Made by a program: the position numbers and the translations under genes
Shown: one piece after another, positions 2,573 to 56,381 of the stretch
Position numbering within the stretch: the first letter of the stretch is position 1
Layout of the letters: the number at the start of each line of letters is the position of its first letter
Notes under the pieces: model-generated
What the model was told of the DNA's origin: nothing
Database searches by the model: none
What the model saw: the letters and a program-made list of their open reading frames with translations, nothing else
Origin: a bacterium
GTDB lineage: Bacteria; Patescibacteriota; Microgenomatia; JAADGY01
DNA: 62,685 bases
Direction: 5' to 3'
NCBI GenBank assembly: GCA_027028625.1
Contig: JALVIH010000036.1
Location: 1 to 62,685 of the forward strand

Positions 2573-2613
2573 GAACTTAGCTTCTCTCCCCCATATTTTG
2601 TTATGATATTAGA

Positions 2614-21012: not shown

Positions 21013-21567
21013 TAAAATCTGGAACTAGGAACTAGGTTAGAAAATAACAAATCATAAATACCAAGTTCTAAACAAATCCTAAATCCTAAACTCTAATATC
21101 TAAACAAATCCTAAATTCAAATGACCCAAATTCTAAACCTTGTTTCTTGGGTCACCCTGAACGAGCCGTCAGGCGAAGTGAAGGCCCCCCTTCGGTAGGG
21201 GTAAAATCTAGCGAGCGGAGCGAGTGCAAGGATTAGCACCAACGTTCAGAAACACATACATGCGTCTCCGGCTAGACCCCGACAAGTCGGGATGACATGG
21301 AAAAAAGGAAACATGAATTCTTCTCTCTGAGTCATTCTGACCCTCCGGGGCGGAGGGGAAGAATCTAGCGAAGCGCTCTTATTGGTATCTTGTTTGAAAT
21401 TTGATAATTGGAACTTGTTTGAAAATTGGTCATTTTTAACCTAGTTCTTAGTTCCATTTGTGTCCTTGGAATTTATGTTTTAGTGCTTTCTTGCCAAGTT
21501 CTAAGTTCTGAGTTCTGAGTTCCAATAACTAAGTTCCAAGCTCCAAGTTCTAAGTTCTATTTCCAAT
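21013..21567. repeat. mosaic palindromic intergenic cassette A
   Basis: Left GGAACTAGGAACTAGG at 21021-21036, arm-core-arm hairpin at 21151-21296, a truncated second unit from 21331, and a right 9x heptamer array at 21496-21558. Confidence 0.9.
21496..21558. repeat. tandem heptamer array, 9 units (AAGTTCT AAGTTCT GAGTTCT GAGTTCC AATAACT AAGTTCC AAGCTCC AAGTTCT AAGTTCT)
   Basis: Strict 7-nt periodicity read directly from the sequence. Arrays of the complementary GGAACTW orientation bound the left side of cassettes. Confidence 0.9.
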
Positions 21568-22515
21568 TCACTCCTTCAAGGAATGAAATTTCTGATATAC
21601 GTCCCGAAGGCGCTTGTTGGTTACATGGGTGTAAATCTGGGTAGTAGCCAGATTCTTATGCCCCAACAATTCTTGGACAGCCCGGATATCAGCTCCCTGG
21701 GAAAGAAGGTCAGTAGCGAAACTATGCCGCAGACTATGGGGAGTTATCTTCTTGGCCAAACCAGCTTGAAGAGCGTACCTACGGACTATTCTCTCCACAC
21801 TCCGAACTGACAAACGCATCTTCTCCCCTCGATTATAAGGAATAACTTTGCCTCTATGACGAATAAAAAGAGGCTTCCAATCATCTTCCCGCATAAGGAG
21901 GTACTTCTTCAACCACTCTAAGGCTCGAGGCGATAAAAAAACTAAGCGAACCTTCCGCCCTTTGCCAACCACACTAAACTCTCCGGTCTTGAGATCTACA
22001 CTGTCCCTATCTAAACCAACTAACTCTGAAACCCGCAGTCCAGAAGAAAATAAAACCTCTAAAATTGCCTTGTCCCGCACCCCAGATAAAGTAGTAACAT
22101 CCGGACCAGCCAGGAGTTTCTCCACTTCATCTAAACTCAAAAAATTGGGGAGGTGAGGCGATGTTTTGGCTAAAGTTATCTGATCCGGAGTTATCTTAGG
22201 CTTCACTCCCTTTTTAATTAGGAAGCGGAGCAGTCCTCGAAGGGCGATTAAGTAGTAATTCTGAGTCTTAGCGGAAAGAAAAATCTTCCGCCGTTCGTCC
22301 AACATCTTATTAGATAAAAATACCCGGTAAGAATCAATATTCTCCAAGGTGAGATTAGCTAGGGTGGGGGTGTTTACTTTTTTTTCTCCAACTAAAAAAT
22401 CATAAAACTCTCCTAAGTAAGCGCGATAATTCCTTACTGTAAGAGGAGAGTAATTCCGCTCAACTTGAAGATACAAGACAAACTGTTCTATCCAGTAATC
22501 CAACTCTTTAATCAT
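21568..22515 (-). CDS. xerC: tyrosine site-specific recombinase XerC/XerD family
   Basis: C-terminal RHSFATDLLSQGADIRAVQELLGHKNLATTQIYTHV (R-H-R-Y catalytic set) and an N-terminal SAM-like domain. TATAAT at 22521-22526 (minus) lies 5 nt before the ATG. Confidence 0.9.
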   Translation of the reverse strand: MIKELDYWIEQFVLYLQVERNYSPLTVRNYRAYLGEFYDFLVGEKKVNTPTLANLTLENIDSYRVFLSNKMLDERRKIFLSAKTQNYYLIALRGLLRFLIKKGVKPKITPDQITLAKTSPHLPNFLSLDEVEKLLAGPDVTTLSGVRDKAILEVLFSSGLRVSELVGLDRDSVDLKTGEFSVVGKGRKVRLVFLSPRALEWLKKYLLMREDDWKPLFIRHRGKVIPYNRGEKMRLSVRSVERIVRRYALQAGLAKKITPHSLRHSFATDLLSQGADIRAVQELLGHKNLATTQIYTHVTNKRLRDVYQKFHSLKE

Positions 22516-22988
22516 ATCTCATTATATAATCCCCTGAAGGGTGAAGAACTTGGAATAATTGGAACTAGGAACTAGGGGGTTGATTAATTTTAAATTTGAA
22601 ATTTTTAACCTGCCTGCCGGCAGGCAGGTTTTTAATCAAATCAAATTTTAAAATCTTAATATCAAAATTCAATGCCTTCTTTATCGGGTCATCCTGAGGA
22701 GCTGGGGCGACGAAGCCCCCCTTCGGTAGGGGTAAAATCTAGCGAGCAGTAGCGAGCGCAAGGATTAGTACTCAGGCTTGAGTTTACTCTCGTGCGCCTT
22801 CGGCTAGATTCTTCGTCACTTTGGCTCCTCAGGATGACACGAAGAATTATACCCATTATAAAGGTCTAATTACTCGAAAGACAAAAACAAGCACTCACCG
22901 CTCCCGGCTGCTAAAAACACCACCATCAATCGCCTTACATTTTTAGCTTATAATAAAAGAGTATCGCCTGTCAAGAACAAGGGAAATT
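22516..22988. repeat. mosaic palindromic intergenic cassette B
   Basis: Heptamers at 22546-22577, a 24-nt perfect palindrome at 22607-22630, and an arm-core-arm hairpin at 22688-22838. Confidence 0.9.
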
Positions 22989-24950: not shown

Positions 24951-25501
24951 CATTCTATCTCTGTTAAATCGCATAATCGCTTCATTTTGGACCGTTTTTA
25001 AAAAGTAACTATAAACTTAATTATCTTATTTAAAATGGTTTTTAGCATTTTCGGCCAGTTTGACCTTCTTGGCCACATCCGCCAACCAACCCAACCAAAG
25101 GTAGACAAAAAAGATCAACTGGAGAAGAGTTGGAAGAGGAGAAAAAAGAAAAAAAGAAAAATATTTTTGAAAATTCTTTTAATTAAAACAAAAAATAAAC
25201 AATTAATAAAGGCAATCCCCCTTAAGAGGGATCTTGCTATTCGTTCGTAAAATGTATCTTGTGCGACATATTGTTTCTCCTAACCTACTCCCACTAATTG
25301 AACTATTTAAAATAGAGGAGCGGTCAAGGAAAATAAAAAAGAAAATAATTTTAATCGAAGAAAAAGGAAAATTTAGCAAACATTTAAAACTCAATTCCAG
25401 AACTCTCCAACAGTTCCTACAGTTTTACCGCAGCCTTTCACTCGAGAAACTATATCAAAGTATGACAAGAGTTAGCCTTTTAGATTTATAATTAGTAAGT
25501 C

Positions 25502-25575
25502 CGGGGATTAGCTCAGATGGCTAGAGCGCTACGTTCGGGACGTAGAGGTCGGCGGTTCAAGTCCGCCATCCCCGA
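25502..25575 (+). tRNA. tRNA-Pro (anticodon CGG)
   Basis: Cloverleaf read by hand: acceptor CGGGGAT/ATCCCCG, anticodon stem CTACG/CGTAG with loop TTCGGGA, and T-arm GGCGG TTCAAGT CCGCC. No encoded CCA. Confidence 0.9.
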
Positions 25576-25712
25576 CTAAAAAGAAAACTAAAAAAAGTTT
25601 TCCACAATAAGGATAAAGGGTAATTGCGTTGCATTTTTCTTCACGATCCAAAAGATCACTTCTCTCATTCTAGGCACTTCCTACTTTTTATTTTCACAAG
25701 CCGCGTGAAAAT

Positions 25713-25772
25713 ACTATAGGAACATATCCTCCCCACACTATAGGTACATATATTTACTATAGGAACTTATCC
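25713..25772 (+). repeat. three direct repeats ACTATAGGWACWTATMY (25713, 25737, 25756)
   Basis: actataggaacatatcc / actataggtacatatat / actataggaacttatcc, read directly. They lie 70-130 nt upstream of the island promoter. Confidence 0.85.
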
Positions 25773-25844
25773 ATTCTCCCCCCTACCCTCTACAGAGCCG
25801 ACTAAAAAATTTCTCCTTCCGCGAAATCATAAAAAACCATAAAA

Positions 25845-25873
25845 TTGACATATTTAAAAAGGCAAATTATCAT
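25845..25873 (+). promoter_or_regulatory. sigma70-type promoter TTGACA-17-TATCAT, with the ATG 5 nt downstream
   Basis: TTGACA at 25845-25850, TATCAT at 25868-25873, ATG at 25879. Predicts a leaderless transcript. Confidence 0.5.
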
Positions 25874-25878
25874 AATTT

Positions 25879-27180
25879 ATGCCCAGACAACAGGAAGAGG
25901 GCTTGTCTTACCTCAAAACCGAAGAAGTATTAAGCCAAGAGCTAGGAGATAACAAAATTACGGAAGAGTATTCTTGGCTAGCAGCTATCAAAGCTATAGC
26001 TAAGGAAATAAACAGCTTAACAATAAAAGAAGCTAAAGAAGGAGAACCTAAATTTGACTCTGAAGCTTTAACTTTTTATTTAAAACACAACCCTACCCTC
26101 CAGGAAGTAATGATGGTTACTCGTCAGTTCATGGAGAAAAGACAAGAAGAAGGAAAAAAGACTAAAGAGGATATAACCAGGGTCGGTATAACCCTTCAAG
26201 ACATCACTATTCTCTTAGCCAAAGAACTGAAAAACACAAAAATCACAGACAACCAAACCAGAAAAAAATTAGAAGAAACCTTAGTAGAGATATATAGACT
26301 CGGAGTAGTCATTCAAACCCTCGAACTTAAGAAGGAAAGAATACCCTTTGAAGACCTAACAAAGAAAACACTCCATTATCCTCAAGGTGACGAGGAATCA
26401 AAAAAGGTATATGAAAGAGAGCTATGGTTTTTCATCTTAGGCAAGTATCATCCTACCATCGCTTTAAGAAGTGAGTATGATATGTCCTCGTATAAACTGA
26501 GAAAAAAACCACCGCCGAGAAACTACTGGGATATGTATGAGGATTGGTCAGAACGATTCCTTAAAACCAAATTAAGAAGAGTGGAAACAAAACAATTAGG
26601 TATGCCTCACTTATTTTCTGATGAAATTAACCCCCAACTTAGAAAACTCCATGAAGCAATAACAGCTATTGAAAGTGGAGATATGACAGGGCAAAAAGAC
26701 AAAACTAGGGAAGCTGAGATTGCTATTACTCAATATATCCTAAACAAATTAGAGGATGAAACTTTTAGAGTGATTGATACTATCATTGATAGATGCCCAT
26801 CACCAAATCTAGAAACAATTCTTCAAACCCTTAGCAAGACAATTAATATTCTAATGAGTCATCAAAAAGAATTACTTACTCAGGTCTTTGAGACTAAAAT
26901 CTGGAGAAAGAGAAATTTAATTAAACAACAAGCACTCAGATTCATTTTAGAGAGAAACTCTTTGTCCCCTCACACCGACGAGGCTTTAAAAGAAGTAAGC
27001 CGCACTGGCATAGAAGGACAATTTCTATCTACCTTTTTAGAGCATGGTTTGGATGAAGTAGAAGAAAAAATGAAACTACCAAAACAAAGCTTCACTGCTT
27101 TTTTAAGACTTCTTAAGGAATATGCTCCAATTCAAGCGATAAAAATCCTCAAAAATAACTATGGTGAACATTATTTTTAA
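25879..27180 (+). CDS. hypothetical protein (433 aa, predicted mostly helical, Lys/Glu-rich)
   Basis: Long uninterrupted ORF. I recognise no motif. Confidence 0.65.
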   Translation: MPRQQEEGLSYLKTEEVLSQELGDNKITEEYSWLAAIKAIAKEINSLTIKEAKEGEPKFDSEALTFYLKHNPTLQEVMMVTRQFMEKRQEEGKKTKEDITRVGITLQDITILLAKELKNTKITDNQTRKKLEETLVEIYRLGVVIQTLELKKERIPFEDLTKKTLHYPQGDEESKKVYERELWFFILGKYHPTIALRSEYDMSSYKLRKKPPPRNYWDMYEDWSERFLKTKLRRVETKQLGMPHLFSDEINPQLRKLHEAITAIESGDMTGQKDKTREAEIAITQYILNKLEDETFRVIDTIIDRCPSPNLETILQTLSKTINILMSHQKELLTQVFETKIWRKRNLIKQQALRFILERNSLSPHTDEALKEVSRTGIEGQFLSTFLEHGLDEVEEKMKLPKQSFTAFLRLLKEYAPIQAIKILKNNYGEHYF

Positions 27181-28090
27181 AAAAGCTGGCGATGAAATTA
27201 AAAGGAGAGAGAAAAAAGAAGGAAAACTCACTCCCCATCAAAAAGCTAAAATAATTTTCCAATTAGTTGCTCATTATCCCTATAAATTAACTTATTCCCT
27301 AACTGAAGCTATCAAGAGCCGAGGGTTTGAATGTAACTTAAAAGCTATTATCGCTGCCAGCCTTCTAAGGAAATTAGTCCCTGAAATAAAGGTATTTGGA
27401 GTATTGTCTTTTGGACATGTTTTTTTAGGCTTACAAATAGGGAAAGATATATATATTTTTGACCCCACTAATCACATATTTGAATCGGCACCATCCAGTT
27501 TATCTCAAACAGTACATCAATATATAAAAAGTGGCCAAATAGCTTCTAGGCGAACCACTTATATAATCCCTCCTTCTTATCGTTACATATACTATGAGGT
27601 AGGCCAACCAGAAAAAATATTCTTGAGCTCTCTACTTTATAATATTTCCTCCCTAAATTCAGCCCCCTACCTACAAAAGCAGATTACAGAGTCGAGCATA
27701 AGAATTAATCCACTTCTTGATCTGCCTCTCAATACATTGGGGACTATGTTTTTCGACACAGCCCAGTTCCAGAAAGCGCAAGATTATTACAGAAAAAGTA
27801 CAAGTATAAATCCTCAATACTATAATCCTTATAATAATATTGGTGTTATCTACGATGAGTGAGGAAGATATAATGAAGCAATTAAGTATTATAAAATGGC
27901 CTTGATTCTCAAACCTGCATACTCTTCCCCTTGGGAAAACTTAGCTGATCTTTTCCTTTCTCTTAATGAATATCAGAAAGCGACCATTTGTTATCAAATG
28001 GCACTAAGATATACAAAAGATCCAACCATTAAACAAAACATTTTAGAAAAACTTAAACAAGCAAAGGAAGGCTTACAACATTCTTCTTAA
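27161..28090 (+). pseudogene. transglutaminase-like Cys-His-Asp domain + TPR protein interrupted by an in-frame TGA (27860-27862)
   Basis: A C...H...D spacing (GFECNLKAIIAASLLRKL ... FGHVFLGLQ ... IYIFDPTNH). A TPR repeat runs through the stop in the same frame: NNIGVIYDE*GRYNEAIKYYKMALILKP. Confidence 0.6.
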
Positions 28091-28905
28091 ACACTAATTC
28101 CTACAGGATAAAAAATGTGAGTAAGGTAGTGGTACTCATTGTCCGTATTGAATGGACCCTTGAGATACATCTCAAAGACTGGCGGACTAATAGGTAGCTT
28201 ATTCTTTCTAAAGTAAAGATCCAATTTCCGATAAACCATTGCCAAAAAGCGGTATGGACCAAGAAAGGAAAACCTGTAAGCCGGCCGCCGCTGATATCTT
28301 TCTACTTTAAAACCAGAAGGTAGCTTCTCCTCCTTTACCCTCCCCCCTTTGATGATTAAACCTATCTTCAAATCAGCCTCCAAAGGACTAAAATAAGGCG
28401 TTTGATAAAAGGTAATTTCTAAAGGTTCAAACTTCGCTCCACTTCTATCAGCTACCTCCCATAATAACTTAACATAGTCATTTATCTGATAATAACTCCC
28501 CTTTACTTTATAGGTTAGAAGCTGCCAACCACCAATCCACACCTTCTTTAAGGCTGGCCGTCGACTATTCAAAAATTTATTAAAGGAAAGAATAAAATCT
28601 CTCTTAGCTTGGAGAAGTTTTATCTCCTCATCTAAATTAGCTACCATATCTGAAACTTTTACCTTTCCCCTGCCCTGTTCACCTATCTCCTTTAACCCTA
28701 ACCCTAGCTCTTGTAACCACTTAATCTTTAATACCTTCTCTATTTGATCCAACCGATAATAACGATAGCCAGTCCACTTATCTTGATAATCAGGTTCAAG
28801 AAGTCCTTTTTCCTGCCACAAGCGTAAAGCCCGAGGAGTAGTTAGAGCTACTTTAGCAAACTCTGCTATCCTTAAAAGTTTGACTTGACTTTGACCCTGC
28901 GTCAT
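28087..28905 (-). CDS. MerR-family transcriptional regulator with GyrI-like/effector-binding C-terminal domain
   Basis: N-terminal HTH LLRIAEFAKVALTTPRALRLWQEKGLLEP...GYRYYRLDQIEKVLKIKWLQELGLGLKEI. 272 aa, as in BmrR/TipA-type regulators. Confidence 0.85.
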   Translation of the reverse strand: MTQGQSQVKLLRIAEFAKVALTTPRALRLWQEKGLLEPDYQDKWTGYRYYRLDQIEKVLKIKWLQELGLGLKEIGEQGRGKVKVSDMVANLDEEIKLLQAKRDFILSFNKFLNSRRPALKKVWIGGWQLLTYKVKGSYYQINDYVKLLWEVADRSGAKFEPLEITFYQTPYFSPLEADLKIGLIIKGGRVKEEKLPSGFKVERYQRRPAYRFSFLGPYRFLAMVYRKLDLYFRKNKLPISPPVFEMYLKGPFNTDNEYHYLTHIFYPVGISV

Positions 28906-28942
28906 AGTTTATTATACTCCCACTATGACAGCTATCTATCAA
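28891..28942. promoter_or_regulatory. symmetric bidirectional promoter in a 19-bp divergent gap (core ATTATACT at 28911-28918)
   Basis: Plus strand: TTGACC (28891-96)-16-TATACT (28913-18)-6-ATG (28925). Minus strand: TTGATA (28937-42)-20-TATAAT (28911-16)-5-ATG (28905). An 8-bp dyad GTCATAGT/ACTATGAC (28901-08 / 28922-29) embeds both start codons. Confidence 0.5.
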
Positions 28943-30640
28943 ATTTTAGCCAAAAATGAAAATTTAACTCTGGCCGACTGGCAGGAGTTGGAAAGAAAAA
29001 TAAAACCGTTCACTCGGTCCTTTTCCCTTTTTATCGACATTAAGGATTACAAATTCCATTTCTACCTTTTAACTCCAAAAGATATCTCTTCCTCTCTAGC
29101 TGATCAGTCTCACCTTTTCTTTAAAAAGATTACCGCCCTTCCTCTGCCCCATCATCGACTTCCTCATATTTTCCGCTTGCCTAAGAAAAATCTTTTTGAT
29201 CTTATTACCTATTACCAGTTAAGGAAAAAGGAACAACTAAACCAACTTCTTATCACTTACCATAACTTTCCCTGGCCGTTCTATTTAACTACCTTCTTCC
29301 TAGGCAATTCTTCCAGCACCTTTTTTACCTTTTCTCCTCCCTACCATCTTCTTCAACTCAACTTCAAAAACCACCACACTTTCAAACTCAAGAAGTTGCC
29401 AGACTTTCTCAATCCAGACAAAATACAAACTCTTCTTACCTTCGACTCGAAACTAGCCTTAGCCAAAGTAGACCTCTTCCCATATTTAACTAAACCCGCT
29501 TTCTTCCCTGTTTCTAGTCTTGATTTAGCCAAACACTCCCTCATTGTTGGCCAAACAGGTACTGGTAAATCAAAACTTATCCAACTGATAATCAGCCAAC
29601 TTCTGAATTTTCAGTCTCAGCCTTTTCATATAATTCTTATTGATCCCCACCTAAGGTTAGCTCAACAGCTCCATCTCAACTTTCCTCAGAGAAGCCAGCT
29701 GATTGATTTTATCCACCAAACTGTACCCCTTCTCTCTAGTCTCCATCAACCTCAAACCGCTACGGAACTAACTATTCTTCTTTTTAAAACTTTACTAGCC
29801 AACCAGTTTAATTCTTACCTCCAACGTCTTCTCCGCTACACTCTCTTTACTCTTTACACCACTCAGTCGGCCTCCCTAACCAACCTTTACAAATTTTTAA
29901 CAGATGAGGAATATAAAAACCAGTTAACCAACAAGCTTCCTCAAGATTATCAACATCTAAAACACTTCTTCGACACCGATTTTATTAAGTATCAAACCGC
30001 CTACTATGACATTACTTTTATGCCCCTTATCTCTCTTCTAGAGGAGCTTAATTTTCTCCCCTCCTTCACCTCCTCCAAATCCAAATTATTACCCCTTGAC
30101 AAGACAATCAACACCTACCCTCTGACCCTCTTTGCTCTCGACCAACTGTATCTGGGAAATGCTAACTCCAAACTTATTTCCGGCCTCATTGTTCAACAAA
30201 TCTTCCTCCTGGCTCAGAAAGGAGGACTAACTCACCCAACTCTCCTAATTATTGATGAAGCCCCCTTAGTCGAAAACGAGGCTTTAGCCACCATTCTTTC
30301 CCAGTCACGAAAGTTTAAGCTCTCTATGATTCTCTCCTACCAGTACCTTAGCCAGACTAAACCTAACATCCTTGAATCTATAAAGACAAATGTCTACAAC
30401 TATTTTATCTTCAAAACTTCTGATAACGATGCCAAACTCTTAACTAATCTTATCGAGTTAGACCTAAAAAACAAAACCACTAACCCTATTCATCAAGATC
30501 GCTTTCGAACTCAGATTATCACCTCTCTCAACCCCCGCCAACTGCTTATTCGCCCTTTTTTCGAAAACAAATTTTATCCAGCTTTCAAAGCCGAAACTAT
30601 TGACATTAAAAACTTATTTCCATCAAAAGATGCTAGCTAA
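28925..30640 (+). CDS. FtsK/HerA/TraG-superfamily P-loop NTPase (571 aa) with an unknown 200-aa N-domain
   Basis: Walker A VGQTGTGKS (29549-), Walker B LLIIDEA (30242-30262), then SQSRKFKLSMILSYQYLSQ (the Arg/Gln-rich motif of this superfamily). Amino-acid composition is highly unusual. Confidence 0.75.
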   Translation: MTAIYQILAKNENLTLADWQELERKIKPFTRSFSLFIDIKDYKFHFYLLTPKDISSSLADQSHLFFKKITALPLPHHRLPHIFRLPKKNLFDLITYYQLRKKEQLNQLLITYHNFPWPFYLTTFFLGNSSSTFFTFSPPYHLLQLNFKNHHTFKLKKLPDFLNPDKIQTLLTFDSKLALAKVDLFPYLTKPAFFPVSSLDLAKHSLIVGQTGTGKSKLIQLIISQLLNFQSQPFHIILIDPHLRLAQQLHLNFPQRSQLIDFIHQTVPLLSSLHQPQTATELTILLFKTLLANQFNSYLQRLLRYTLFTLYTTQSASLTNLYKFLTDEEYKNQLTNKLPQDYQHLKHFFDTDFIKYQTAYYDITFMPLISLLEELNFLPSFTSSKSKLLPLDKTINTYPLTLFALDQLYLGNANSKLISGLIVQQIFLLAQKGGLTHPTLLIIDEAPLVENEALATILSQSRKFKLSMILSYQYLSQTKPNILESIKTNVYNYFIFKTSDNDAKLLTNLIELDLKNKTTNPIHQDRFRTQIITSLNPRQLLIRPFFENKFYPAFKAETIDIKNLFPSKDAS

Positions 30641-31370
30641 AGAAGCCTTCCAATTAGTAGATCATGTTTGGAGTTCAATCTTTAACCAGCCAATGCCTTT
30701 TAAACACCTCGAGGAGGTCAAAACAATCCTAGCTGCTTCTATCCCTTTACCTACCCAGGTGAAAACTATCCGCAAGACCACTGCTTATCTTACCCCTACC
30801 TACTTTCCCATACCCAACACCTACTTGGATTATCAAGACCTCAAACCAGCTTCTGTCAAATCCCAACCATCCCCACTTCCTTCACCAGACCAATTTATCA
30901 AGGCTTGGCAGGAAAAAAAGATCTGGGTGGTTAATAAAAACATCAGCTCAGCCAAGATCAGCCAGTCCGATAATGTTTACCAAAGCCAAAATGTTTACAA
31001 CTCTTGTTATGTTTTTAATTCTAAAGACATCATCTTCAGCCGCCAGTTGGGTTCTTGCCAGCGGCTTATTGCCAGTTACAACAATGACTCTTGTACCTCC
31101 AGTATTCGCTTAAGTGACAGTCTCAACTCCTCTTACTGTTTTGAAGTTTCTTGGTCCAATAAAGTTTCCCATTCGATGTTTATCCACAATGGTTACAATC
31201 TTTATGAATGCCTTTTCTGCCAGAATCTCTATTCTAAAAAATACTGCATCGCCAACATCCAGTTTTCCCCTACTGATTACTTCACCCTTAAAGAACAAAT
31301 TATTGCCTACCTAGCTAAAGATAACTGGTCCAACCTTATTCCTTTAATCTCCCCTGCTCGCCGCCGCTAG
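30630..31370 (+). CDS. Cys/Ser/Asn-rich repeat protein (about 246 aa), unknown function
   Basis: The ATG at 30630 overlaps the ATPase stop by 11 nt. The C-terminal half has repeated S/N-x-Y/C patterns with 9 Cys (…NSCYVFNS…GSCQRL…DSCTSS…SSYCFEV…YECLFCQNLYSKKYC…). Confidence 0.55.
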   Translation: MLAKEAFQLVDHVWSSIFNQPMPFKHLEEVKTILAASIPLPTQVKTIRKTTAYLTPTYFPIPNTYLDYQDLKPASVKSQPSPLPSPDQFIKAWQEKKIWVVNKNISSAKISQSDNVYQSQNVYNSCYVFNSKDIIFSRQLGSCQRLIASYNNDSCTSSIRLSDSLNSSYCFEVSWSNKVSHSMFIHNGYNLYECLFCQNLYSKKYCIANIQFSPTDYFTLKEQIIAYLAKDNWSNLIPLISPARRR

Positions 31371-31857
31371 ATAGTTTCCCTAAGAAACGAGCTAAGATAC
31401 CTTTTTTGGGGCTCTCTGGCAAGTGGACAGCTTGTCTTTTCTTAGCCTCCTCTTCCTTCTTTTTTCTTTCTTTCTCTTGCTCTTCAGCCAAACGTTTTCT
31501 CTCTTCTTCTTGAGCTTTCCGCTTTCTATAAGCCTTAATTTCTTCCTGGATTCTGTTGTAGCGGGCAATAATCTGTTTCAAGCGGGCTTCCAACTCAGCC
31601 TTCTTTCTTCTTTGTTCCTCTTGTCTCTTCCTTTCTTCGGGTGATAAAACCTTTTGAGATGTACTACTTCTACTTTTCCCCTGCCCTACTCCTTCCTGAC
31701 CACCTCCACCTTGACTATTACTTTTTTCCATTAACTCACTCAAGAGTTTATTCAAATCAGCTGGCGGTTGGTTTTGGCCACCAGAAGAATCGCTCTTCCC
31801 CTCTTCAATCGCTGTCGGCGGCTTCAAACCACCGCCCCCCATCGTCCCATTAGTCAT
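31336..31857 (-). CDS. low-complexity protein: Gly/Ser/Gln-rich N-terminal half plus Lys/Glu/Arg coiled-coil
   Basis: 173-codon ORF directly downstream of the 429-aa gene. Composition is biased, so the coding status is less certain. Confidence 0.45.
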   Translation of the reverse strand: MTNGTMGGGGLKPPTAIEEGKSDSSGGQNQPPADLNKLLSELMEKSNSQGGGGQEGVGQGKSRSSTSQKVLSPEERKRQEEQRRKKAELEARLKQIIARYNRIQEEIKAYRKRKAQEEERKRLAEEQEKERKKKEEEAKKRQAVHLPESPKKGILARFLGKLSSGGEQGRLKE

Positions 31858-31863
31858 AGTTCA

Positions 31864-33153
31864 TTATATCTGTTTCCAACGTAAGGGCAAACACCTAGTT
31901 TTAAAATTAACCAATACTTCGTCATTTGGCTTAAAAGTATAATATCCGCTTAATCCACCTGCTGTTTTTTCCTGTCCCCACTGAGCCAGGGAAAAATTAT
32001 CTGTATAGCTATCTATATGAGTTCTGCCCCAATCCTCTCTCCCCGCCCGTTTAGCTATCTCTTCCCATTCTTCCTTTTCTTTTTCTGGAACTACTAATCG
32101 CAAATGGCGTAATGGTATTTCGCAACCACGTGGGTTTTCTTCTCTGTAGCTATCCGCAAAAATATGGATCTCGGGTGTAGAATTATGACCTGTAGTATTA
32201 GGAAAATAAACAAATTTATAATCTTCTGCTAATTGAGGAATCGTAGTTGTAAAAAATATAATAGGAATACTCTCTCTAGCAAATTTACCATAAGGCATAA
32301 CACTACCAAATGAAAAAGAAATATGTGGTAAAACCCTCCCCTCATATTTATCTTTAATAGGCGCAGTTTGAATTACTTTTCCACCCATTTCTCTCTGTCG
32401 GAGAGCGGATTTTAAAGAACCTTCTTCAATAACCCGTCTAACTATTTCTTCATCTCCAGGAACATGGATCAAAGGCGTTTCCTGAAACCTTTTACACCAC
32501 TCAAAAAAATTTCTTCTATATCCTTCCCATGCCCAATCTTCATTGTTAATTCTTTTAAGAAACCTAATAATCAACTGATCATCGTCATCACCTAATACTT
32601 TATATAACCTTTGTATCTCTTGAGATAATTTATTCAATTCCTTTATTTGCTGTTCTGAAGGAACAATAATTGGAGGATGTCGATAAATTCCTTCCCCATG
32701 CACATCTAAATTAAAAAAGCGATTTTGAAGATCAGTCACTTTATGCGACGGCCAATAACTCCATTCTTCATCTGAAAGGAATTTTCTCAACCGTTTCCAA
32801 AAAATAAAATTAAGACGACTTTGTAATTGTTTTAATACTTCTTCCTTTCTTCCCCTAGTAAGAAATAACTTTTCTTTCCAACTCCTTGGATGAATTTCCC
32901 TTTTTAACAAAATTCCAACAGCTCTTTTTAGAATGGCGTCAGAAAAGCCATTTCCCCATAACTTCTCTGCAATATTTTCCACTTCTTTTTTACCTACCTG
33001 GGTATTATAATCAGGAGACAAAAATGGTTCAAAAATAGCTCTAATCCTCTGTACAAAAAGCTCCGCCGGCATACTAAGCGGCTCCGATCCAATTAAAAGT
33101 TCTATCTTTTCCTCCCCTTTTACTTCCTCTGGGTATTCACTCCTTTTTATCAT
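31864..33153 (-). CDS. hypothetical protein (429 aa)
   Basis: Long uninterrupted ORF with balanced composition. No recognisable motif. Confidence 0.65.
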   Translation of the reverse strand: MIKRSEYPEEVKGEEKIELLIGSEPLSMPAELFVQRIRAIFEPFLSPDYNTQVGKKEVENIAEKLWGNGFSDAILKRAVGILLKREIHPRSWKEKLFLTRGRKEEVLKQLQSRLNFIFWKRLRKFLSDEEWSYWPSHKVTDLQNRFFNLDVHGEGIYRHPPIIVPSEQQIKELNKLSQEIQRLYKVLGDDDDQLIIRFLKRINNEDWAWEGYRRNFFEWCKRFQETPLIHVPGDEEIVRRVIEEGSLKSALRQREMGGKVIQTAPIKDKYEGRVLPHISFSFGSVMPYGKFARESIPIIFFTTTIPQLAEDYKFVYFPNTTGHNSTPEIHIFADSYREENPRGCEIPLRHLRLVVPEKEKEEWEEIAKRAGREDWGRTHIDSYTDNFSLAQWGQEKTAGGLSGYYTFKPNDEVLVNFKTRCLPLRWKQI

Positions 33154-33719
33154 TACCTTAAATTTTACACCGATAATATCTTTTCCTCCATTTCATCCTG
33201 AGTTATCGGGATGTAGCCAAAGGCGCGGGGGATTGGAACTTGGAGCTTGGAATTCAGAACCTAGTCGAAAAGAAGAAGACTTAGCCAGTCTAGAGTAAGT
33301 AAGAGCTTAGAAAAAACTTGGATACCAGTACCTTTGCGCTCGCTTCCGCTCGCTAGATCCCGACAAGTCGGGATGACATGGAGAAATAGGTATGCCTTCT
33401 CCTCGAGTCATCCTGAACGAGCCGTCAGGCGAAGTGAAGGATCTAGCCGAAGGCGCACGAGAGTAAACCAAAGCCTGAGTGCTAATCCTTGCGCTCGCTA
33501 TTGCTCGCTAGATCCTTCGTCGCTCTGGCTCCTCAGGATGACTTCCTAAAAAAGGTTTTTATTTGGTTGTTGGAATTTATGTTTTAGTGCTTTCTTGCCA
33601 AGTTCTAAGTTCTAAGTTCCAAGCTTTAAGATCATCACACTCTCGAAGAGTGATAAATCACACTTCGGGAGAGTGATTTATTCAAGTTCCAAGTTCCGAT
33701 TACCTAGTTCCTAGTTCCT
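33154..33719. repeat. mosaic palindromic intergenic cassette C
   Basis: Heptamers at 33231-33262, a variant core at 33288-33377, an arm-core-arm hairpin at 33407-33542, heptamers at 33598-33630, a 46-bp palindrome at 33631-33682, and heptamers at 33684-33719. Confidence 0.9.
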
Positions 33720-34373
33720 TCAATACCCTTCGCTGTGAATGTCTATGGAATTAAGGCCGGCCTGGCGGACGAGTTGGCCAATCTGGCGGACAAAGGACAA
33801 AGAACCAACGATATAATAAACCGTCTCATCTGTTAGCCAGGAAGAGAGATAATCCTCAATATGACCATTCTTAATCCCAGCTACTTTCTGCCGAGACAAA
33901 ACCGGCTGGTAATCAGCATACTTCCGAAATAAATTAGCCCAAACCAGATATTCCTGGTAACGTTCCTGATGAACTACTCGTTGTTTTCTCCTCTTTTTAA
34001 ACTCTAGGACTAAACTCCTCACCCCAGCCACGCCGCATCCTGCCACCAAATAAGTAATCCTAGGCAGATCTTGAAAATGACCGCTATGGTGGACTCCCAT
34101 TGGCCCAGAAATCTCCACCTCACTCCCTATCTCTTTATTAAAAAGATGATTGGACATCTTCCCTCCAGGCACCCGGCGGATATAAAACATTAAGAAGTCT
34201 TCACTTGGATGGGAAGATAAAGTATAAGCCCGGCGAACAAACTGACCATTAATAGTGTCGCCTATCATCACAAACTGGCCAGGATGATAAGTAAAACCTG
34301 CCGGCCGATTGGTAGTCAAGATATACTTCTCCTCCCCTACCGGCCGGCGGTCTTGAATAATTACTTTACTCAT
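33720..34373 (-). CDS. ferredoxin-NADP reductase-type FAD/NAD(P)-binding oxidoreductase (217 aa)
   Basis: RRAYTLSS (RxYS FAD motif), GGKMSNHL, ISGPMG, LVAGCGVAGV, and a terminal aromatic residue (…HSEGY). Confidence 0.8.
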   Translation of the reverse strand: MSKVIIQDRRPVGEEKYILTTNRPAGFTYHPGQFVMIGDTINGQFVRRAYTLSSHPSEDFLMFYIRRVPGGKMSNHLFNKEIGSEVEISGPMGVHHSGHFQDLPRITYLVAGCGVAGVRSLVLEFKKRRKQRVVHQERYQEYLVWANLFRKYADYQPVLSRQKVAGIKNGHIEDYLSSWLTDETVYYIVGSLSFVRQIGQLVRQAGLNSIDIHSEGY

Positions 34374-35045
34374 CTACTTTTTCTTAGGAGTTAGTTTCTT
34401 ATGGCAAAACCACCAATCAAAGCAGTCGTACTTTTTACTCCTCTCCCCTGCTGTCTTAACATCCTCAGCTGGCGGAACAATACCTTCATCTTTAATCAAT
34501 TCGTTATTCGGCCAGTTGGCTGGTAAAGCCACTTTCTGAGCATCGCTTGTCTGCAAAGCTTTGACAGCCCGAAGAATCTCATCTACATTTCTCCCAATCT
34601 CTTGGGGGTAAAAGAGAATAAGGCGTATTACTCCCTTCGGATCGATGATGAAAACTGCCCGAACTGTATTAGTCCCTTTGGCTGGATGAAGCATTCCCAA
34701 ACTGTCAGCTACCCACCCCATATCATCAGCAATTATGGGAAAAGGAATCGTAACTCCTAACTTCTCTTCAATCCACTCTACCCACTTAATATGGGAAAAA
34801 ACTTGGTCAATTGACAAACCCAAGAGTTCGGTATTTAATTTTTTAAACTGGGAATAACGCTTGGCGAAGGCAACAAACTCAGTAGTGCAAACCGGAGTAA
34901 AGTCAGCTGGATGGGAGAATAACACCAACCATTTGCCTTTGTAATCATCAGGTAAGACCTTTTTGCCATGAGTGGTTTTCACCTCCATAAAAGGAAATTG
35001 GTCACCAATTAAAGGAAATTCATTTATTACTATCTCATCCTCCAT
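34374..35045 (-). CDS. peroxiredoxin (Prx6/archaeal-type)
   Basis: Peroxidatic site [12 protein letters not shown] and a C-terminal CFDWWFC pair of Cys. GGGAGG Shine-Dalgarno upstream. Confidence 0.92.
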
Positions 35046-35481
35046 CTCTGCCTCCCTATCAATTTTATTAATTTATTAACTACCATTAGTTTAACACAAA
35101 ACGGAACTTGGTTATCAGAACTTAGAACTCGAATAAATCACTCTCCCGAAGTGTGATTTATCACACTTCGGGAGCGTGATGAACTTGGAGCTTGGAACTT
35201 AGAACTCAGTAAAAATAACCAATTATCAATGATCAATTTTCAGACAAACTCCAAGCACCAATGATCCAACTTCTAAACCTTGTCTATCAAGTCATTCTGA
35301 GTGTTAACGAAGAATCTAGCGAGCAGCGCGAGCGCAAGGATTAGCACCCAAGTTTGAGAGCACTCTCATGCGCCTTCGGCTAGATTCCGACAAGTCGGGA
35401 TGACCCGAGAGGAGGTTGTACTTTATAACTTTATGAACTTTATGAACTTTCTAACTTCATAAACTAAGTTCTAATCTCGTG
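35046..35481. repeat. mosaic palindromic intergenic cassette D
   Basis: Heptamers at 35101-35130, a 46-bp palindrome at 35131-35181, heptamers at 35181-35208, an arm-core-arm unit at 35290-35403, and a ctttatgaa-type repeat at 35420-35474. Confidence 0.9.
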
Positions 35482-35650: not shown

Positions 35651-36159
35651 ATCCGAACTCATTTATTTTACTACACCCCAGGAATAAATCCTAAACCTGC
35701 CTGTCGGCAGACGGGTCCGAAATCCTAAGCTCCAAACCCCCCTTCGGTAGGGGCAGGCAAATCCTAAATTCTAAACTCTTCCGCCACGGCGGATCCGCCT
35801 TAGGCGGAAAATCCTAATGATCAAAATATAAGACTTCTTAAGAGATGTCATCCTGAGGAGCCAGAGCGACGAAGGCCCCCCTTTGGTAGGGGTAAAATCT
35901 AGCGAAGCGCAAAGTCGCTGGCATCCAAGCTTAAGTAGACACTCATGCGCCTATCGGCTAGATCCTTCACTTCGCCTCTCGGCTCGTTCAGGATGACTCC
36001 CTAAACAGAGTTTTGATTATTGGGATTTGGAATTTGTTTGGATACTTGGAATTTGCTATTTGGCGCTTTCCTACCAAGTTCCAAGCTCCAAGTTCATCAC
36101 TCTCCCGAAGAGTGATAAATCACACTTCGGGAGAGTGATTTATTCCAAGTTCTAAGTTC
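35651..36159. repeat. mosaic palindromic intergenic cassette E
   Basis: A degenerate GC palindrome at 35694-35717, C(UUCG)G stems, an arm-core-arm hairpin at 35847-35997, heptamers at 36074-36095, a 46-bp palindrome at 36095-36144, and heptamers at 36144-36166. Confidence 0.9.
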
Positions 36160-36900
36160 CTAGTTCCGATTGCCTGACAATCTCTTAAGGACAGCTTCAA
36201 GGTCTGGAGGTAAAGGAGAAGTAAAGGTAACCTCTTTTTTACTTGAAGGATGGCGAAAGGTTAAGGAGGCGGCATGAAGAAAGATACGTGGCGTCAGGTC
36301 AGAGGTAGTTTGGAATTTCTTCCTCCCACTATAAAATGAGTCGCCCACCAAAGGATGCCCAAGATAACGAAAATGGACTCTCACCTGATGAGTCCGCCCC
36401 GTTTGAGGAAAGACTTCAACCAAAGAGTACCACTTTCCTTGATAAGAAAAACTTTCTTTCAAACGATATTTTGTTTTGGACGGCCGGCCACCAATAAAAA
36501 CAGTGAAGCGCCGCCGATTAAAGGGGTTGCGTTGAATCGGAGCATCAATCACTCCTTCTTCCGGCACTGAACCATGAACTAAGGCCAAATACTTCTTTTT
36601 TACTCTCCGTTCTTTGAACTCAGCTAACAAAAACTCTAAAGCCGACGGAGTCCGCCCAATAAGAAGAACTCCGCTAGTATCCTTATCTAAACGATGAGCC
36701 AAACCAGACCGCTGAGCGAACACCTCATTCCCCTCTCCTGGTTTTACCCAACCTTCTTCTTCTAACCAGTCTTGGAGTGTTTTTGTCTTCACCGACTCTG
36801 CCCGATTGACCACCAATCCAGCTGGTTTATCAACTACCAAGATATAATCATCCCAATAGATTGGCCGAATGTTTAACTTACTTTCTTCACTAGCCACCAT
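36160..36900 (-). CDS. RluA/RluD-family pseudouridine synthase (no S4 domain)
   Basis: Catalytic HRLDKDTSGVLL and GRTHQVRVH motifs. Confidence 0.88.
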   Translation of the reverse strand: MVASEESKLNIRPIYWDDYILVVDKPAGLVVNRAESVKTKTLQDWLEEEGWVKPGEGNEVFAQRSGLAHRLDKDTSGVLLIGRTPSALEFLLAEFKERRVKKKYLALVHGSVPEEGVIDAPIQRNPFNRRRFTVFIGGRPSKTKYRLKESFSYQGKWYSLVEVFPQTGRTHQVRVHFRYLGHPLVGDSFYSGRKKFQTTSDLTPRIFLHAASLTFRHPSSKKEVTFTSPLPPDLEAVLKRLSGNRN

Positions 36901-41969: not shown

Positions 41970-42482
41970 ATTCCTATTTTACAACACTCGTGGGTTGCTG
42001 AAGGGAAACTGGAACTAGGAACTAAGAACTAGGAGCTAGGTTAGAAAAAAGCACTAAATCCGAAACCTGCCTGCCGGCAGGCAGGTTCGAAATCCTAAGC
42101 TCCAAATAAATTCTAATCTCTAAATCCTAAATTTTAAACAACTAAAAAGGAGTCATTCTGAGGAGTCAGAGCGACGAAGAATCTAGCGAGCGATAGCGAG
42201 CGCAAGGATTAGCTCTCAAGTTTGGGTTTACTCTCGTGCGCCTATCGGCTAGATCCTTCACCTCGCCTATCGGCTCGTTCAGGATGACTCGAGGAGGAGG
42301 CATACCTCTCTCTCCATGTCATCCCGACTTGTCGGGATGACACAATACTAAACCCCAAGCACCAAATTCCAAGTATCCAAACCCCCCTTCGGTAGGGGCA
42401 GGCAAATTCCAATACCAATGATCAAAATATTAAGAGGAGGAATTAAAAATTAAGAATTAAAAATTTCAAATTTTAAACTCCC
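41970..42482. repeat. mosaic palindromic intergenic cassette F
   Basis: Heptamers at 42009-42042, a 24-nt palindrome at 42064-42087, an arm-core-arm hairpin at 42152-42288, a perfect 24-nt palindrome gtcatcccgacttgtcgggatgac at 42318-42341, and an A/T module at 42441-42477. Confidence 0.9.
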
Positions 42483-46596: not shown

Positions 46597-47072
46597 AACT
46601 TAGAACTCAGAACTTGGAGCTTGGAGCTTGGTACTCAGTCGGAAAGAAGAAAACTTAGGCAGTCTAGAGTGAGTAAGAGCTTAGAAAAAACTTGACTGCC
46701 AATACCTTTTGCGCTCGCTTACCGCTCGCTAGATCCCGACAAGTCGGGATGACGCGGGGGGCAGGAAAACAGCTTCTTAGGATGACACAGAAGCACGACC
46801 CTCTCTTCGAGTCATTCTGAGCCCTGCGAAGAATCTAGCCGATAGGCGCACGAGTGTGCTCCTAAATGTTGGTGCCAATACTTTTGCGCTACGCTAGATC
46901 CTTCGTCGCCTTGGCTCCTCAGGATGACCCGAGAAAGAAGATTTTGGATTTTGGTAATTAAGATTTTGATATTGTTTAGAATTTAGGATTTAGAGTTTAG
47001 TGCTTCCTTTAACCTAGTTCCAAGTTCCAATTCCCTCTTGCCTCTTACCACTATTTTTTGCTAAGCTAAGGT
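46597..47072. repeat. mosaic palindromic intergenic cassette G
   Basis: Heptamers at 46594-46637, a variant core shared with cassette C at 46640-46753, an arm-core-arm hairpin at 46811-46928, and heptamers at 47011-47034. Confidence 0.9.
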
Positions 47073-51689: not shown

Positions 51690-52220
51690 AACTTCTTATT
51701 TTAACAAAGAAATCAACTTTCAGCTACAAGAAATCAGAACTTGGAACTTGGAGCTTGGAACTCGGTAAAAAAATGACCAATTATCAATGATCAATTTTCA
51801 AACAAATTCCAAGCACCAATAATCAAAGTTCAAAACCTTTTTAGGGGGTCATTCTGAGCCCCAGCGAAGAATCTAGCGAAGCGCAAAGTTGCTGGCATCC
51901 AAGCTTAAGTAGACACTCGTGCGCCTATCGGCTAGATTTTACCCCTACCGAAGGGGGGCTTCGTCGCCTCAGCTCCTCAGGATGACTCAGTATTAAATTC
52001 CAAGCACCAAATTCCAAGAAACAAACCCCCCTTCGGTAGGGGTAAAATCTAGCCGATAGGCGCATGAGAGTGAACTCAAGCGTTGGAGCTGATCCTTGCG
52101 CTCGCTCCGCTCGCTAGATCCCGACAAGTCGGGATGAGGCGGGGGGACAAGAAAGCAGCTTCTTAGGATAATGGGGAAACAAGCCAAAAAAATACCGATA
52201 GAGGCTATAATAAAGGAGTT
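51690..52220. repeat. mosaic palindromic intergenic cassette H
   Basis: Heptamers at 51734-51765, an arm-core-arm hairpin at 51848-51986, and a second inverted core unit at 52026-52136. Confidence 0.9.
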
Positions 52221-54949: not shown

Positions 54950-55232
54950 TTATTGAAGCTGGAACTAGGAGCTAGGTTAAAAAATAACCAAATTCCAAAT
55001 TCCAAGAAACAAACAAGGTCTAAATCTCAATGTTCCAAACTTAACTTAATTTTCATTATTTTTGATCATTGGTTATTGTTATTTGTTTGTATCCTTGGAG
55101 TTTGATACTTGGAATTTAATACTGAGTCATCCTGAACGAGCCGCCAGACGAAGTGAGGACCCCCTTCGGTAGAGGTAAAATCTAGGCTGAAGGCGCAGGG
55201 GTTGGAACTTAATCTTGAAGCCTAGAACTTAT
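54950..55232. repeat. mosaic palindromic intergenic cassette I (truncated)
   Basis: Heptamers at 54959-54977, inverted A/T modules, and a left arm plus partial core at 55126-55200. Heptamers at 55202-55231 are in the same orientation as the left end. Confidence 0.85.
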
Positions 55233-56009: not shown

Positions 56010-56381
56010 ATAGTATATTATATATAAATTGTCAAAAGGGAGTCATTCTCAGAAACCAGAGCGACGAAGGATCTAGCAAAACGCAAAGATTTTGAATCCT
56101 ACACCTAGGAATACACTCATGCGCCTCCGGCTAGATTCTTCCCCTCCGCTTCGGGGGGTCAGAATGACACAAAAGACAAAGTTTTGGAGCTAATAGCAAA
56201 AATGTGTTGATTTTTTGCTATTAGCTCAAGTTTTGGATTTTGGTATTTGTGTTTTGGTGCTTTCTTACTGAGTTCCAAGTTCCGAGTTCCAAGTGCTGTT
56301 TTATTTGAAAATTGGTCATTGATAATTGGTCATTTTTACTGAGTTCTATTTCCCCCAGTGTTGTAAAATTAGGTATTGCTA
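56010..56381. repeat. mosaic palindromic intergenic cassette J
   Basis: An arm-core-arm hairpin at 56052-56168, a hairpin gctaatagcaaaaa...tttttgctattagc at 56189-56226, and heptamers at 56269-56296. Confidence 0.9.

Follow-up and report, generated by a model that had tools for sequence, protein, structure and literature searches.

A dispensable, probably mosaic region beside tRNA-Pro in a Patescibacteriota genome, with a predicted ligand-inducible HerA/VirB4-class ATPase and its cysteine-rich partner at its core

We analysed a stretch of 62,685 nucleotides, here called the window (contig JALVIH010000036.1 of assembly GCA_027028625.1; Patescibacteriota, Microgenomatia, JAADGY01). In this window, the 7.6 kb directly 3' of a tRNA-Pro(CGG) gene had been described in an earlier note as an accessory or horizontally acquired island made almost entirely of orphan genes. 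Our analysis indicates that positions 25794-33153 are probably a mosaic, dispensable stretch of three independent units, the core of which would encode a ligand-induced motor of the HerA/VirB4 class and a cysteine-rich (Cys-rich) partner protein. The three units would lie in a repeat-rich, insertion- and deletion-prone intergenic zone. They consist of the genes for a 433-aa protein and a TPR protein (Unit 1), a merR-ATPase-partner module (Unit 2) and the genes for a 173-aa and a 429-aa protein (Unit 3).

The region was compared with the same locus in a sister species, which was reached through P0122, a relative of the 429-aa protein, and is represented by three independent assemblies (loci L014, L015 and L016). 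With blastn, the window and the sister loci were collinear from gyrB to tRNA-Arg at 85-90% nucleotide identity. Two segments of the region were missing from the sister. The first (25794-28105) holds the 433-aa and TPR genes, and ~490 nt of a dispersed repeat was found there instead. The second (28179-31286) holds most of merR, the entire ATPase gene and most of the gene for the Cys-rich protein. In total 5.4 kb with these five genes was missing, while the genes for the 173-aa and 429-aa proteins were found in both species. At the second segment the sister carried a scar, in which 73 nt from the 3' end of merR run directly into the final 84 nt of the Cys-rich gene, with an 8-nt microhomology (CTCAAAGA/CTTAAAGA) at the junction. 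A tblastn search of the sister recovered amino acids 250-267 of MerR (94%) and 220-246 of the partner (96%). As these gene-end remnants are joined at a microhomology, the sequences indicate that the common ancestor had the merR-ATPase-partner module here and that a microhomology-mediated deletion of 3.1 kb removed it from the sister, rather than that it was gained in the window.

These findings bear on the proposal that all 7.6 kb form one horizontally acquired island beside tRNA-Pro, with defence, surface-interaction or symbiosis cargo, which we now consider improbable. The adjacency to the tRNA, the absence of 5.4 kb from the sister, the low guanine plus cytosine (GC) content of the 433, TPR and 429 genes, the skewed composition of the ATPase gene, one decaying gene, and a DDE transposase beside the only relative of the 433/TPR genes would all fit such an island. 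However, Pfam, NCBIfam and PHROGs gave no match to Phage_integrase, Resolvase or transposase families in any of the eight open reading frames (ORFs), and no recombinase domain was found among them, in agreement with the earlier note, which had recognised no integrase. The nearest tyrosine recombinase was a XerC-like gene (21568-22515) located 3 kb upstream, which the sister keeps with a ratio of nonsynonymous to synonymous substitutions (dN/dS) of 0.066. The last 22 nt of tRNA-Pro occurred only once in the window (up to 3 mismatches allowed), with no distal copy. The empty site was not at the tRNA either: sister homology ran 217 nt past it, to 25793, and the further breakpoints fell within merR and the partner gene, where the remnants and the microhomology point to loss and not gain. 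The right-hand third of the region, with the 173 and 429 genes, is common to both species. In all other lineages examined the core module was chromosomal and among housekeeping genes, not on plasmids, phages or viral contigs, and the skew of its ATPase gene was a clade trait wherever the gene was located. With no integrase, no duplicated tRNA 3' end, and breakpoints 217 nt past the tRNA and inside genes, the region is not tied to the tRNA, and it is not a tRNA-integrated island, though it is dispensable. What stands of the island reading is therefore the dispensability; the region is neither one unit nor targeted to the tRNA, and its central module has been deleted in the sister.

The tRNA-Pro(CGG) gene (25502-25576, plus strand; ARAGORN, Rfam 64.7 bits) is a landmark only and lies outside the variable DNA. 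Between the two a block of 115 nt (25680-25794, plus strand) was ~99% identical in L014, compared with ~85-90% for the DNA around it. The block contains a hairpin (TTTTCAC-7 nt-GTGAAAA; fold z-score -2.8) and three copies of the direct repeat ACTATAGGnACnTAT at 25713-25770, where 0.06 would be expected. From this comparison the block belongs to the conserved flank of the tRNA and not to the variable region. The direct repeats, which had been taken as a mark of the island, do exist, but they are located in the conserved flank and are present in the sister, which has no 433-aa gene. Likewise, the variable DNA does not start at the end of the tRNA as had been proposed; its left limit is 25794, since 25680-25794 is shared with the sister. 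In 25400-25900, Rfam at a permissive threshold detected only the tRNA and nothing for the 115-nt block, and in the whole window all Rfam matches were tRNAs. The block is probably a functional element, for which a small RNA, a protein-binding array or a tRNA-linked signal are candidates.

The ATPase (571 aa; 28925-30640, plus strand) and the Cys-rich partner (246 aa; 30630-31370, plus strand) were found to form a widespread gene pair, present in at least 359 species genomes of Patescibacteria and Firmicutes. Scanning of 185,579 species genomes gave 359 loci with the partner, from Shapiro-, Levyi-, Roizman- and Daviesbacteria, Saccharibacteria, Bacilli, Erysipelotrichaceae, Clostridia and metagenome-assembled genomes (MAGs) of Tenericutes, and gene neighbours were counted in the best 79 of these loci. 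The ATPase gene lay directly upstream on the same strand in 75 of the 79, and clustering of the neighbours left the ATPase and the partner as the only universally conserved ones. The start and stop codons of the two genes overlap (by 11 nt in the window and 4 nt in L007 and L012), which points to translational coupling. Four partner genes had no detectable ATPase match (L029 and L032 from one MAG, JASHUB01, and L071 and L079), some of which may be explained by the end of a contig. The partner cluster had 95 members in the 79 loci, so some genomes or loci have extra copies.

The closest named relatives of the core-module genes came from MAGs of Candidatus Shapirobacteria. The position of the module differed in each more distant relative. 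The pair was next to rpoBC or ddl in the closest relatives, next to uvrB, gatCAB and dnaE in Saccharibacteria, and next to truA and dnaE in Clostridia. Within Saccharibacteria the uvrB/gatCAB context recurred in 6-7 species. No relatives of the partner were found in plasmid, phage and IMG/VR collections. The pair would be an ancient module that Patescibacteria and some Firmicutes inherit with the chromosome. A full-text literature search gave nothing on this gene pair. Genes of type IV secretion systems (T4SS) have been reported in Saccharibacteria in a T4SS review where the pair is not mentioned (PMC12857230).

The description of the region as almost entirely orphan genes did not hold. More than 140 full-length homologues of the ATPase were found across Patescibacteria, the Cys-rich protein belongs to a family of 45 protein clusters, and MerR is a standard family; even for the 173-aa protein a homologue with 72% identity adjoins the same module in L018. 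Based on these searches half of the genes of the region are evidently not orphans, and the true orphans are the 429-aa and 433-aa proteins. Searches did agree with the former view that no housekeeping function is assignable to the genes of the region. For the eight ORFs, matches in PADLOC, PHROGs and NCBIfam were either at the level of superfamilies or under the thresholds.

The members of the partner family are conserved proteins of 230-250 aa without a Pfam domain. They share an invariant block, FEVSWSNK...H...LYECLFCxH...KKYCIANxQF, in an alignment (A1) with 64% mean column identity across phyla. An AlphaFold2 (AF2) model of the partner (mean predicted local distance difference test, pLDDT, 70.8) had a helical N-terminal part and short strands with six-residue periodicity. 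The best Foldseek matches to the model were LpxD/LpxA-like chains at E ~2 with template modelling (TM) scores <0.1. A left-handed beta-helix of the hexapeptide-repeat type was considered and is not supported by any profile or structural match; Hexapep or any other Pfam family gave no match in 35 of 35 members of the family, and the periodicity is suggestive only. Neither a Sir2 nor a DUF4297/Cap4-like domain was detected in the partner with Pfam, PADLOC and the fold search, or in the 35 family members. Sequence and profile searches of PDB gave nothing significant for the partner, the 433-aa and 429-aa proteins or the protease-like domain described below.

Upstream of the pair, and divergent from it across a gap of 19 nt, is the merR gene (272 aa; 28087-28905, minus strand). 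Its product matched Pfam MerR_1 (PF13411) with 45.6 bits against a cutoff of 21.6 (E 7.9e-12), and a putative C-terminal GyrI-like domain (PF06445) scored E 0.0014 and 19.3 bits, which is under the cutoff of 26. In PDB, residues 192-268 matched a solved GyrI-like effector-binding protein at 2.6e-6, and the regulators EcmrR (1.2e-6) and BmrR (1e-5) were also matched. Related regulators beside the pair in other genomes pass the GyrI-like threshold (L033 with 32.9 bits, and L009). Orthologues of merR adjoin the ATPase gene in the closest clade (L007/L019, L009 and L018). Among the 79 loci a regulator with a GyrI-like domain was located directly beside the pair in 25, in three arrangements: a MerR-GyrI protein divergent upstream, a MerR-GyrI protein convergent downstream (Saccharimonadales), and an AraC-GyrI/Cass2 protein co-directional upstream (19 loci, mostly Firmicutes). 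As two unrelated DNA-binding domains with the same type of effector domain have been recruited beside the pair, the regulator association is good associative evidence that the pair is under small-molecule control.

The typical layout for activation by MerR-type regulators is a suboptimally spaced promoter with a 19-20-bp spacer that carries a dyad operator. A candidate of this type was seen in the divergent, overlapping promoter region (28880-28918, both strands; sequence reading and promoter scan), with TTGACT (28885-28890) and TATTAT (28910-28915) separated by 19 nt and the dyad TGACcctgcGTCA (28892-28904) in the spacer. On the opposite strand, TAGATA-16-TATAAT is a candidate promoter for merR. 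The divergent block was conserved at the nucleotide level in four genomes whose proteins are 53-58% identical.

The ATPase matched Pfam DUF87 (PF01935) with 38.3 bits against a cutoff of 23.2, and its Walker A (GQTGTGKS) and Walker B (LLIIDEA) motifs were invariant in alignment A2. Pfam TrwB_AAD_bind is precomputed on most of its homologues. The protein consists of a beta-rich N-domain (1-190) and a P-loop ATPase with an all-alpha insert (~276-397), and the AF2 model had a pLDDT of 89.6. When this model was searched against PDB with Foldseek, 104 matches at E<=0.001 were obtained, with HerA, DptH-C, VirB4 and TrwB at the top. The match to HerA 4d2i had an E-value of 1.4e-11, and the defence HerAs of Sir2 and DUF4297 complexes (8xau, 8wj3, 8ziq, 8j4u) were also matched. 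Target-normalised TM-scores were ~0.6 for DptH-C, VirB4 (4ag5) and TrwB (1e9r). Of the proteins for which the earlier note had proposed structure searches, the Cys-rich protein had no PDB fold match. Stronger than the PDB matches were those in a viral library, to VirB4-like proteins of large Bacillus phages (phage G gp156, 1e-20), in agreement with phrog_5156 (1e-21). Profile searches of PDB sequences matched P-loop regions only. Based on the domain match and the predicted fold, the ATPase is best described as a member of the DUF87 / HerA-FtsK-VirB4-TrwB class, without placement in a functional subfamily.

The aberrant composition that had been claimed for the region was confirmed, with the 54 ORFs of the window (called with table 11) as comparison set. 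The lowest GC contents in the window were those of the 433, TPR and 429 genes (0.346-0.359, z ~-2), with 0.356 for the 433-aa gene and 0.359 for the 429-aa gene (0.256 at third codon positions, GC3). The coding-strand GC skew of the ATPase gene (-0.484, z -2.9) was the most extreme of the 54. A G-depleted sense strand was found for the ATPase gene in the window, L007, L009 and L018, and for the partner gene in the two genomes measured (the window and L007). In the MerR-linked clade the skew ranged from -0.33 to -0.48, with ~1.4% Gly and 1-3% Val, regardless of the GC content of the genome, and homologues from Daviesbacteria and Saccharibacteria showed no such G-depletion. As it is common to the whole MerR-linked clade whatever the GC content of the host, this skew goes with the gene lineage of the ATPase and partner and is not a mark of recent import. 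The G-depletion runs opposite to the usual transcription-associated bias.

In the mechanism that we propose, the ligand-bound regulator would switch on the promoter with its dyad and suboptimal 19-nt spacing. The ATPase thus induced would then assemble into a hexameric motor that works on DNA or some other polymer, with the partner as its obligate adaptor or effector, by analogy with HerA-NurA or HerA-Sir2 pairs. For the role of the pair we favour a stress or xenobiotic response over phage defence, based on the adjacent regulators, the settings among housekeeping genes, a partner that is highly conserved and the absence from mobile elements. More tentatively, the pair and its GyrI-like regulators (of MerR or AraC type) could represent an undescribed ligand-inducible two-component machine of Patescibacteria and reduced-genome Firmicutes, in which a ring motor works with a partner of a new, probably metal-binding, beta-solenoid-like fold. 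Such a machine might answer a xenobiotic, a DNA-damaging toxin or a second messenger, and might amount to immunity of a new type built on a HerA scaffold, or to a new stress-response translocase of DNA or protein.

A function of the merR-ATPase-partner module in anti-phage defence, as a HerA-scaffold system of the Sir2-HerA (Nezha) or DUF4297-HerA type with the partner as toxic effector, is by analogy possible, but we find it doubtful. The operon of two genes for a HerA-fold ATPase and a small partner resembles such systems, and defence HerAs are among the top PDB folds. With PADLOC, mad8 matched residues 199-512 of the ATPase at 2.2e-14 and HerA models matched it weakly. The module is also dispensable, as seen from the loss in the sister, and is scattered over lineages of two phyla. 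However, PADLOC, which had been suggested for the region, called no defence system and gave only partial matches to mad8, mad1 and HerA models, and the partner matched no defence model. Neither Pfam nor the fold search found a nuclease, NADase, protease or other effector signature in the partner, and its high conservation across phyla (64%) is unlike that of fast-evolving defence effectors. The pair is surrounded by housekeeping genes rather than by defence islands or mobile elements, plasmids and phages lack it, and the recurring uvrB/gatCAB context in Saccharibacteria suggests vertical inheritance. Defence systems do not typically come with ligand-sensing regulators of the GyrI-like kind.

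That the ATPase is a remnant or stand-alone part of a conjugation, T4SS or DNA-uptake apparatus (VirB4- or VirD4/TrwB-like) is very unlikely. TrwB_AAD_bind on most homologues, the agreement with the VirB4 and TrwB folds, best viral matches that are VirB4-like "conjugal transfer protein" entries, and the report of T4SS genes in Saccharibacteria (PMC12857230) would be in line with it. In the 79 loci, however, no other T4SS or competence gene was linked and the partner alone was conserved; the neighbours identified were uvrB, gatCAB, dnaE, truA and similar genes. No hydrophobic N-terminal segment was seen in the ATPase by eye, and matches to NCBIfam TraD, TrbE and EccC were restricted to the P-loop and far below the cutoffs.

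Several observations weigh against our preferred reading of a mosaic stretch around a ligand-induced motor and its partner. The searches assigned a biochemical function to none of the non-regulatory proteins. For the partner, the most conserved segment (161-203) was left unmodelled (pLDDT 24-31), and the Foldseek search against PDB gave no match under E=1. The promoter with the 19-nt spacer is one of several hexamer pairings, and the automatic scan preferred 16 nt, while the conservation of the promoter block is partly that of the N-terminal codons of merR. The comparison covers the sister locus only, and a second copy of the module elsewhere in the sister genome is possible. This sister is the one informative relative of the locus, as more distant relatives of the flanking gene had diverged too far. 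When metagenomes were scanned with this flank protein (UPF0014), 80 loci were obtained, the best with 52% identity, and none of them had tRNA-Pro or any gene of the region. For Unit 1, tblastn found no remnant in the sister, so gain here and loss there are both possible, and its low GC content and the transposase beside its only relative would fit horizontal acquisition.

Unit 1 (25879-28090) would be a lineage-restricted operon of two genes, the second of which carries a nonsense mutation in this strain. Its first gene encodes the 433-aa helical protein (25879-27180, plus strand), for which no Pfam, NCBIfam, PHROG or PDB match was found. An exhaustive phmmer search of 1.84 billion representatives gave a sole relative, P0169 (E 5e-19). 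P0169 (557 aa) was found to be a fusion, with an N-terminal half similar to the 433-aa protein (6e-18, 6e-12) and a C-terminal half similar to the 309-aa TPR protein (7e-25). The genes for these two proteins overlap by 20 nt in the window. As they are one polypeptide in the only known relative, the 433-aa and 309-aa proteins appear to have arisen by the splitting of one protein, or P0169 by their fusion, and the two are predicted to function together. In L017 (175-2765) the gene for P0169 is immediately upstream of a DDE_Tnp_4/IS5-like transposase on a metagenome contig of 3.6 kb. The 433-aa and 429-aa proteins were also compared as possible paralogues, which was rejected (BLASTP E 1.6).

The second gene of Unit 1 (27161-28090, plus strand) has 309 codons and is split into ORFs of 233 aa (27161-27862) and 64 aa (27896-28090) by a single TTA to TGA change at 27860-27862. 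Four near-identical strains that were found in other samples have an unbroken gene (309 aa), with TTA shown for L002 and L004, so the disrupted gene noticed before is the result of one nonsense change. The use of TGA as a sense codon (code 25) was rejected, as the other strains have TTA (Leu) and the ORFs of the window are called with table 11. The intact protein matched TPR families of Pfam in its C-terminal part (E 1.6e-18). Transglut_core gave no Pfam match in the protein even at E<=1, and no PDB sequence was matched. A Cys (FEC), a His (GHVF/SHIF) and an Asp (FDP/FDA) align between this protein and P0169, its only homologue. It is this aligned Cys-His-Asp motif that suggests the label protease/transglutaminase-like for the N-domain, and the profile and PDB searches lend it no support.

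Upstream of Unit 1, TTGACA-17-TATCAT (25845-25873, plus strand) was the best promoter-like site of the region, with 11 of 12 consensus matches, and 5 nt separate its end from the start codon (ATG) of the 433-aa gene. The strong promoter claimed for the region is thus present as a near-consensus site, and the overall number of promoter-like sites was at chance level (19 vs 17.2 by chance). The site is absent from the sister, where homology stops at 25793. From this spacing, the mRNA of the 433-aa gene is inferred to be leaderless or near-leaderless. For the 433-aa, ATPase and merR genes alike, the distance from the end of the predicted -10 element to the start codon is 5-7 nt, which suggests such mRNAs at all three.

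Unit 3 consists of two genes on the minus strand, opposite to the pair, and the two convergent sets in which the eight ORFs had been described were recovered at their positions. The 173-aa protein (31336-31857), encoded by the second gene of the unit, is of low complexity, with a Gly-rich N-terminus and a Lys/Glu coiled-coil, and the 3' end of its gene overlaps that of the partner gene by 35 nt. It is kept in the sister with 94% amino acid identity and a dN/dS of 0.07. The module has its closest non-self relative in L018 (MAG M_MetaBat.148), where a homologue of the 173-aa protein (72% identity over 93 aa) is located beside merR, and the 173-aa protein may therefore be loosely associated with the module. 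Adjoining the homologue and merR in L018 is a 525-aa protein (2310-3887), which by eye looks like a Pif1/RecD-type helicase and is unrelated to the 429-aa orphan.

For the product of the 429-aa gene (31864-33153), a search of 5.8 billion proteins gave no more than two clusters, its own and that of P0122 (83% identity), and no family or PDB match and no relatives in IMG/VR were found for it. The gene was full length in both species and evolves fast, with a dN/dS of 0.36 as compared to 0.02-0.13 for the flanking genes. On these data the 429-aa protein appears to be a genuine genus-restricted orphan. Compared with L014 (1448-2737), its synonymous divergence (dS) was 0.245, vs 0.45-1.03 in the neighbours, despite a higher dN. 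Constraint on AT-rich codons or a recent exchange between the species are possible explanations for this low dS.

The genes that flank the region are housekeeping genes, with gyrB, ppa, gyrA, the XerC-like recombinase, a SpoU methylase and an ABC/UPF0014 pair upstream, and an FNR-like reductase, a peroxiredoxin, tRNA-Gln/Arg, rluD, lspA, lgt, proS and dnaB downstream. These flanks, the strong purifying selection on the 173-aa gene and the stable inheritance of the pair in some clades could suggest a conserved core locus, with housekeeping genes that have diverged past recognition. We give this explanation hardly any weight. It is refuted for the five genes that are missing from the sister, this strain has a nonsense mutation in one gene, billions of sequences contain next to no relatives of the 433-aa and 429-aa proteins, and the position of the module differs in every more distant relative.

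At its right edge the region ends, as had been described, at a repeat cassette (33160-33720). This cassette belongs to a family of repeats dispersed over intergenic regions, with runs of AAGTTCT-type heptamers and a GC-rich core, and the family was found at no fewer than 10 further sites in the window. These were 21020-21540, 22600-22850, 35100-35400, 35820-36160, 42150-42340, 46610-46930, 52050-52140, 55120-55160, 56040-56290 and 62630-62670. The cassette forms inverted repeats with 35103-35404, whose arms (33441-33711 and 35103-35385; 107 nt with 89% and 58 nt with 84% complementarity) flank the FNR-like and peroxiredoxin genes. Outside the region the sister lacked 34374-35480, with the peroxiredoxin gene and repeats (adjacent 435 nt), and its tRNA-Gln directly abuts the FNR-like gene. 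The dispersed repeats may promote local rearrangements, and the sister has a copy where the window has the 433/TPR genes.

For the scanning of genomes, the present case shows that DNA is not an island just because it adjoins a tRNA, is odd in composition and encodes hypothetical proteins. Comparison with a single syntenic sister genome sufficed to divide the region into three units and to show loss over gain. The deletion scar, the strain-variable nonsense allele and the repeats at variable junctions present reductive evolution of Patescibacteria in action. The analysis also provides a testable module of a ligand-sensing regulator, a HerA/VirB4-class ATPase and a partner without a Pfam domain, which is present in hundreds of uncultured species and also in gut Firmicutes that are far easier to manipulate. 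The regulator association gives an experimental handle on this functionally uncharacterised family.

Several known systems resemble the region or its core in part. Similar to tRNA-associated islands and integrative elements, the region adjoins a tRNA, varies between close relatives and is partly deviant in composition; unlike them it has no integrase and no att repeats, its breakpoints are off the tRNA and the relative carries a scar of loss. In comparison to MADS, mad8 (2.2e-14, ATPase) and mad1 (6.2e-6, helix-turn-helix of MerR) were the best matches in the defence library. Only two of the eight MADS components (mad1-mad8) have a counterpart here, with the mad1 match confined to the helix-turn-helix, and PADLOC detected no methyltransferase or other mad-like match in the other six of the eight ORFs.

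With HerA-NurA, Sir2-HerA (Nezha) and DUF4297-HerA the module shares the fold of the ATPase (E ~1e-11) and a tight, coupled operon with one smaller partner. It differs in its Cys-rich partner, which is neither a NurA nor a Sir2 or DUF4297 protein and lacks a recognisable fold, in TM-scores of only ~0.4 for the ATPase, in an all-alpha insert that is TrwB/VirB4-like, and in a housekeeping context as compared to defence islands. VirB4, TrwB (VirD4) and the phage homologues gave the best target-normalised agreement with the ATPase (TM-scores 0.59-0.64), and the strongest matches of all were viral. The ATPase, in contrast, has no T4SS neighbours and no evident membrane anchor, and its 571 aa compare with 800-900 aa in the phage proteins.

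The regulator can be compared with BmrR and EcmrR. The known targets of these are multidrug efflux pumps, whereas here a soluble HerA/VirB4-class ATPase and a Cys-rich protein are encoded, and the GyrI-like score of the MerR protein in Pfam is under the family cutoff. Similar to BmrR and EcmrR, it combines a MerR helix-turn-helix, a coiled coil and a probable C-terminal GyrI-like domain, and its gene is placed back-to-back with the operon, across a candidate promoter with a 19-nt spacer and a dyad.

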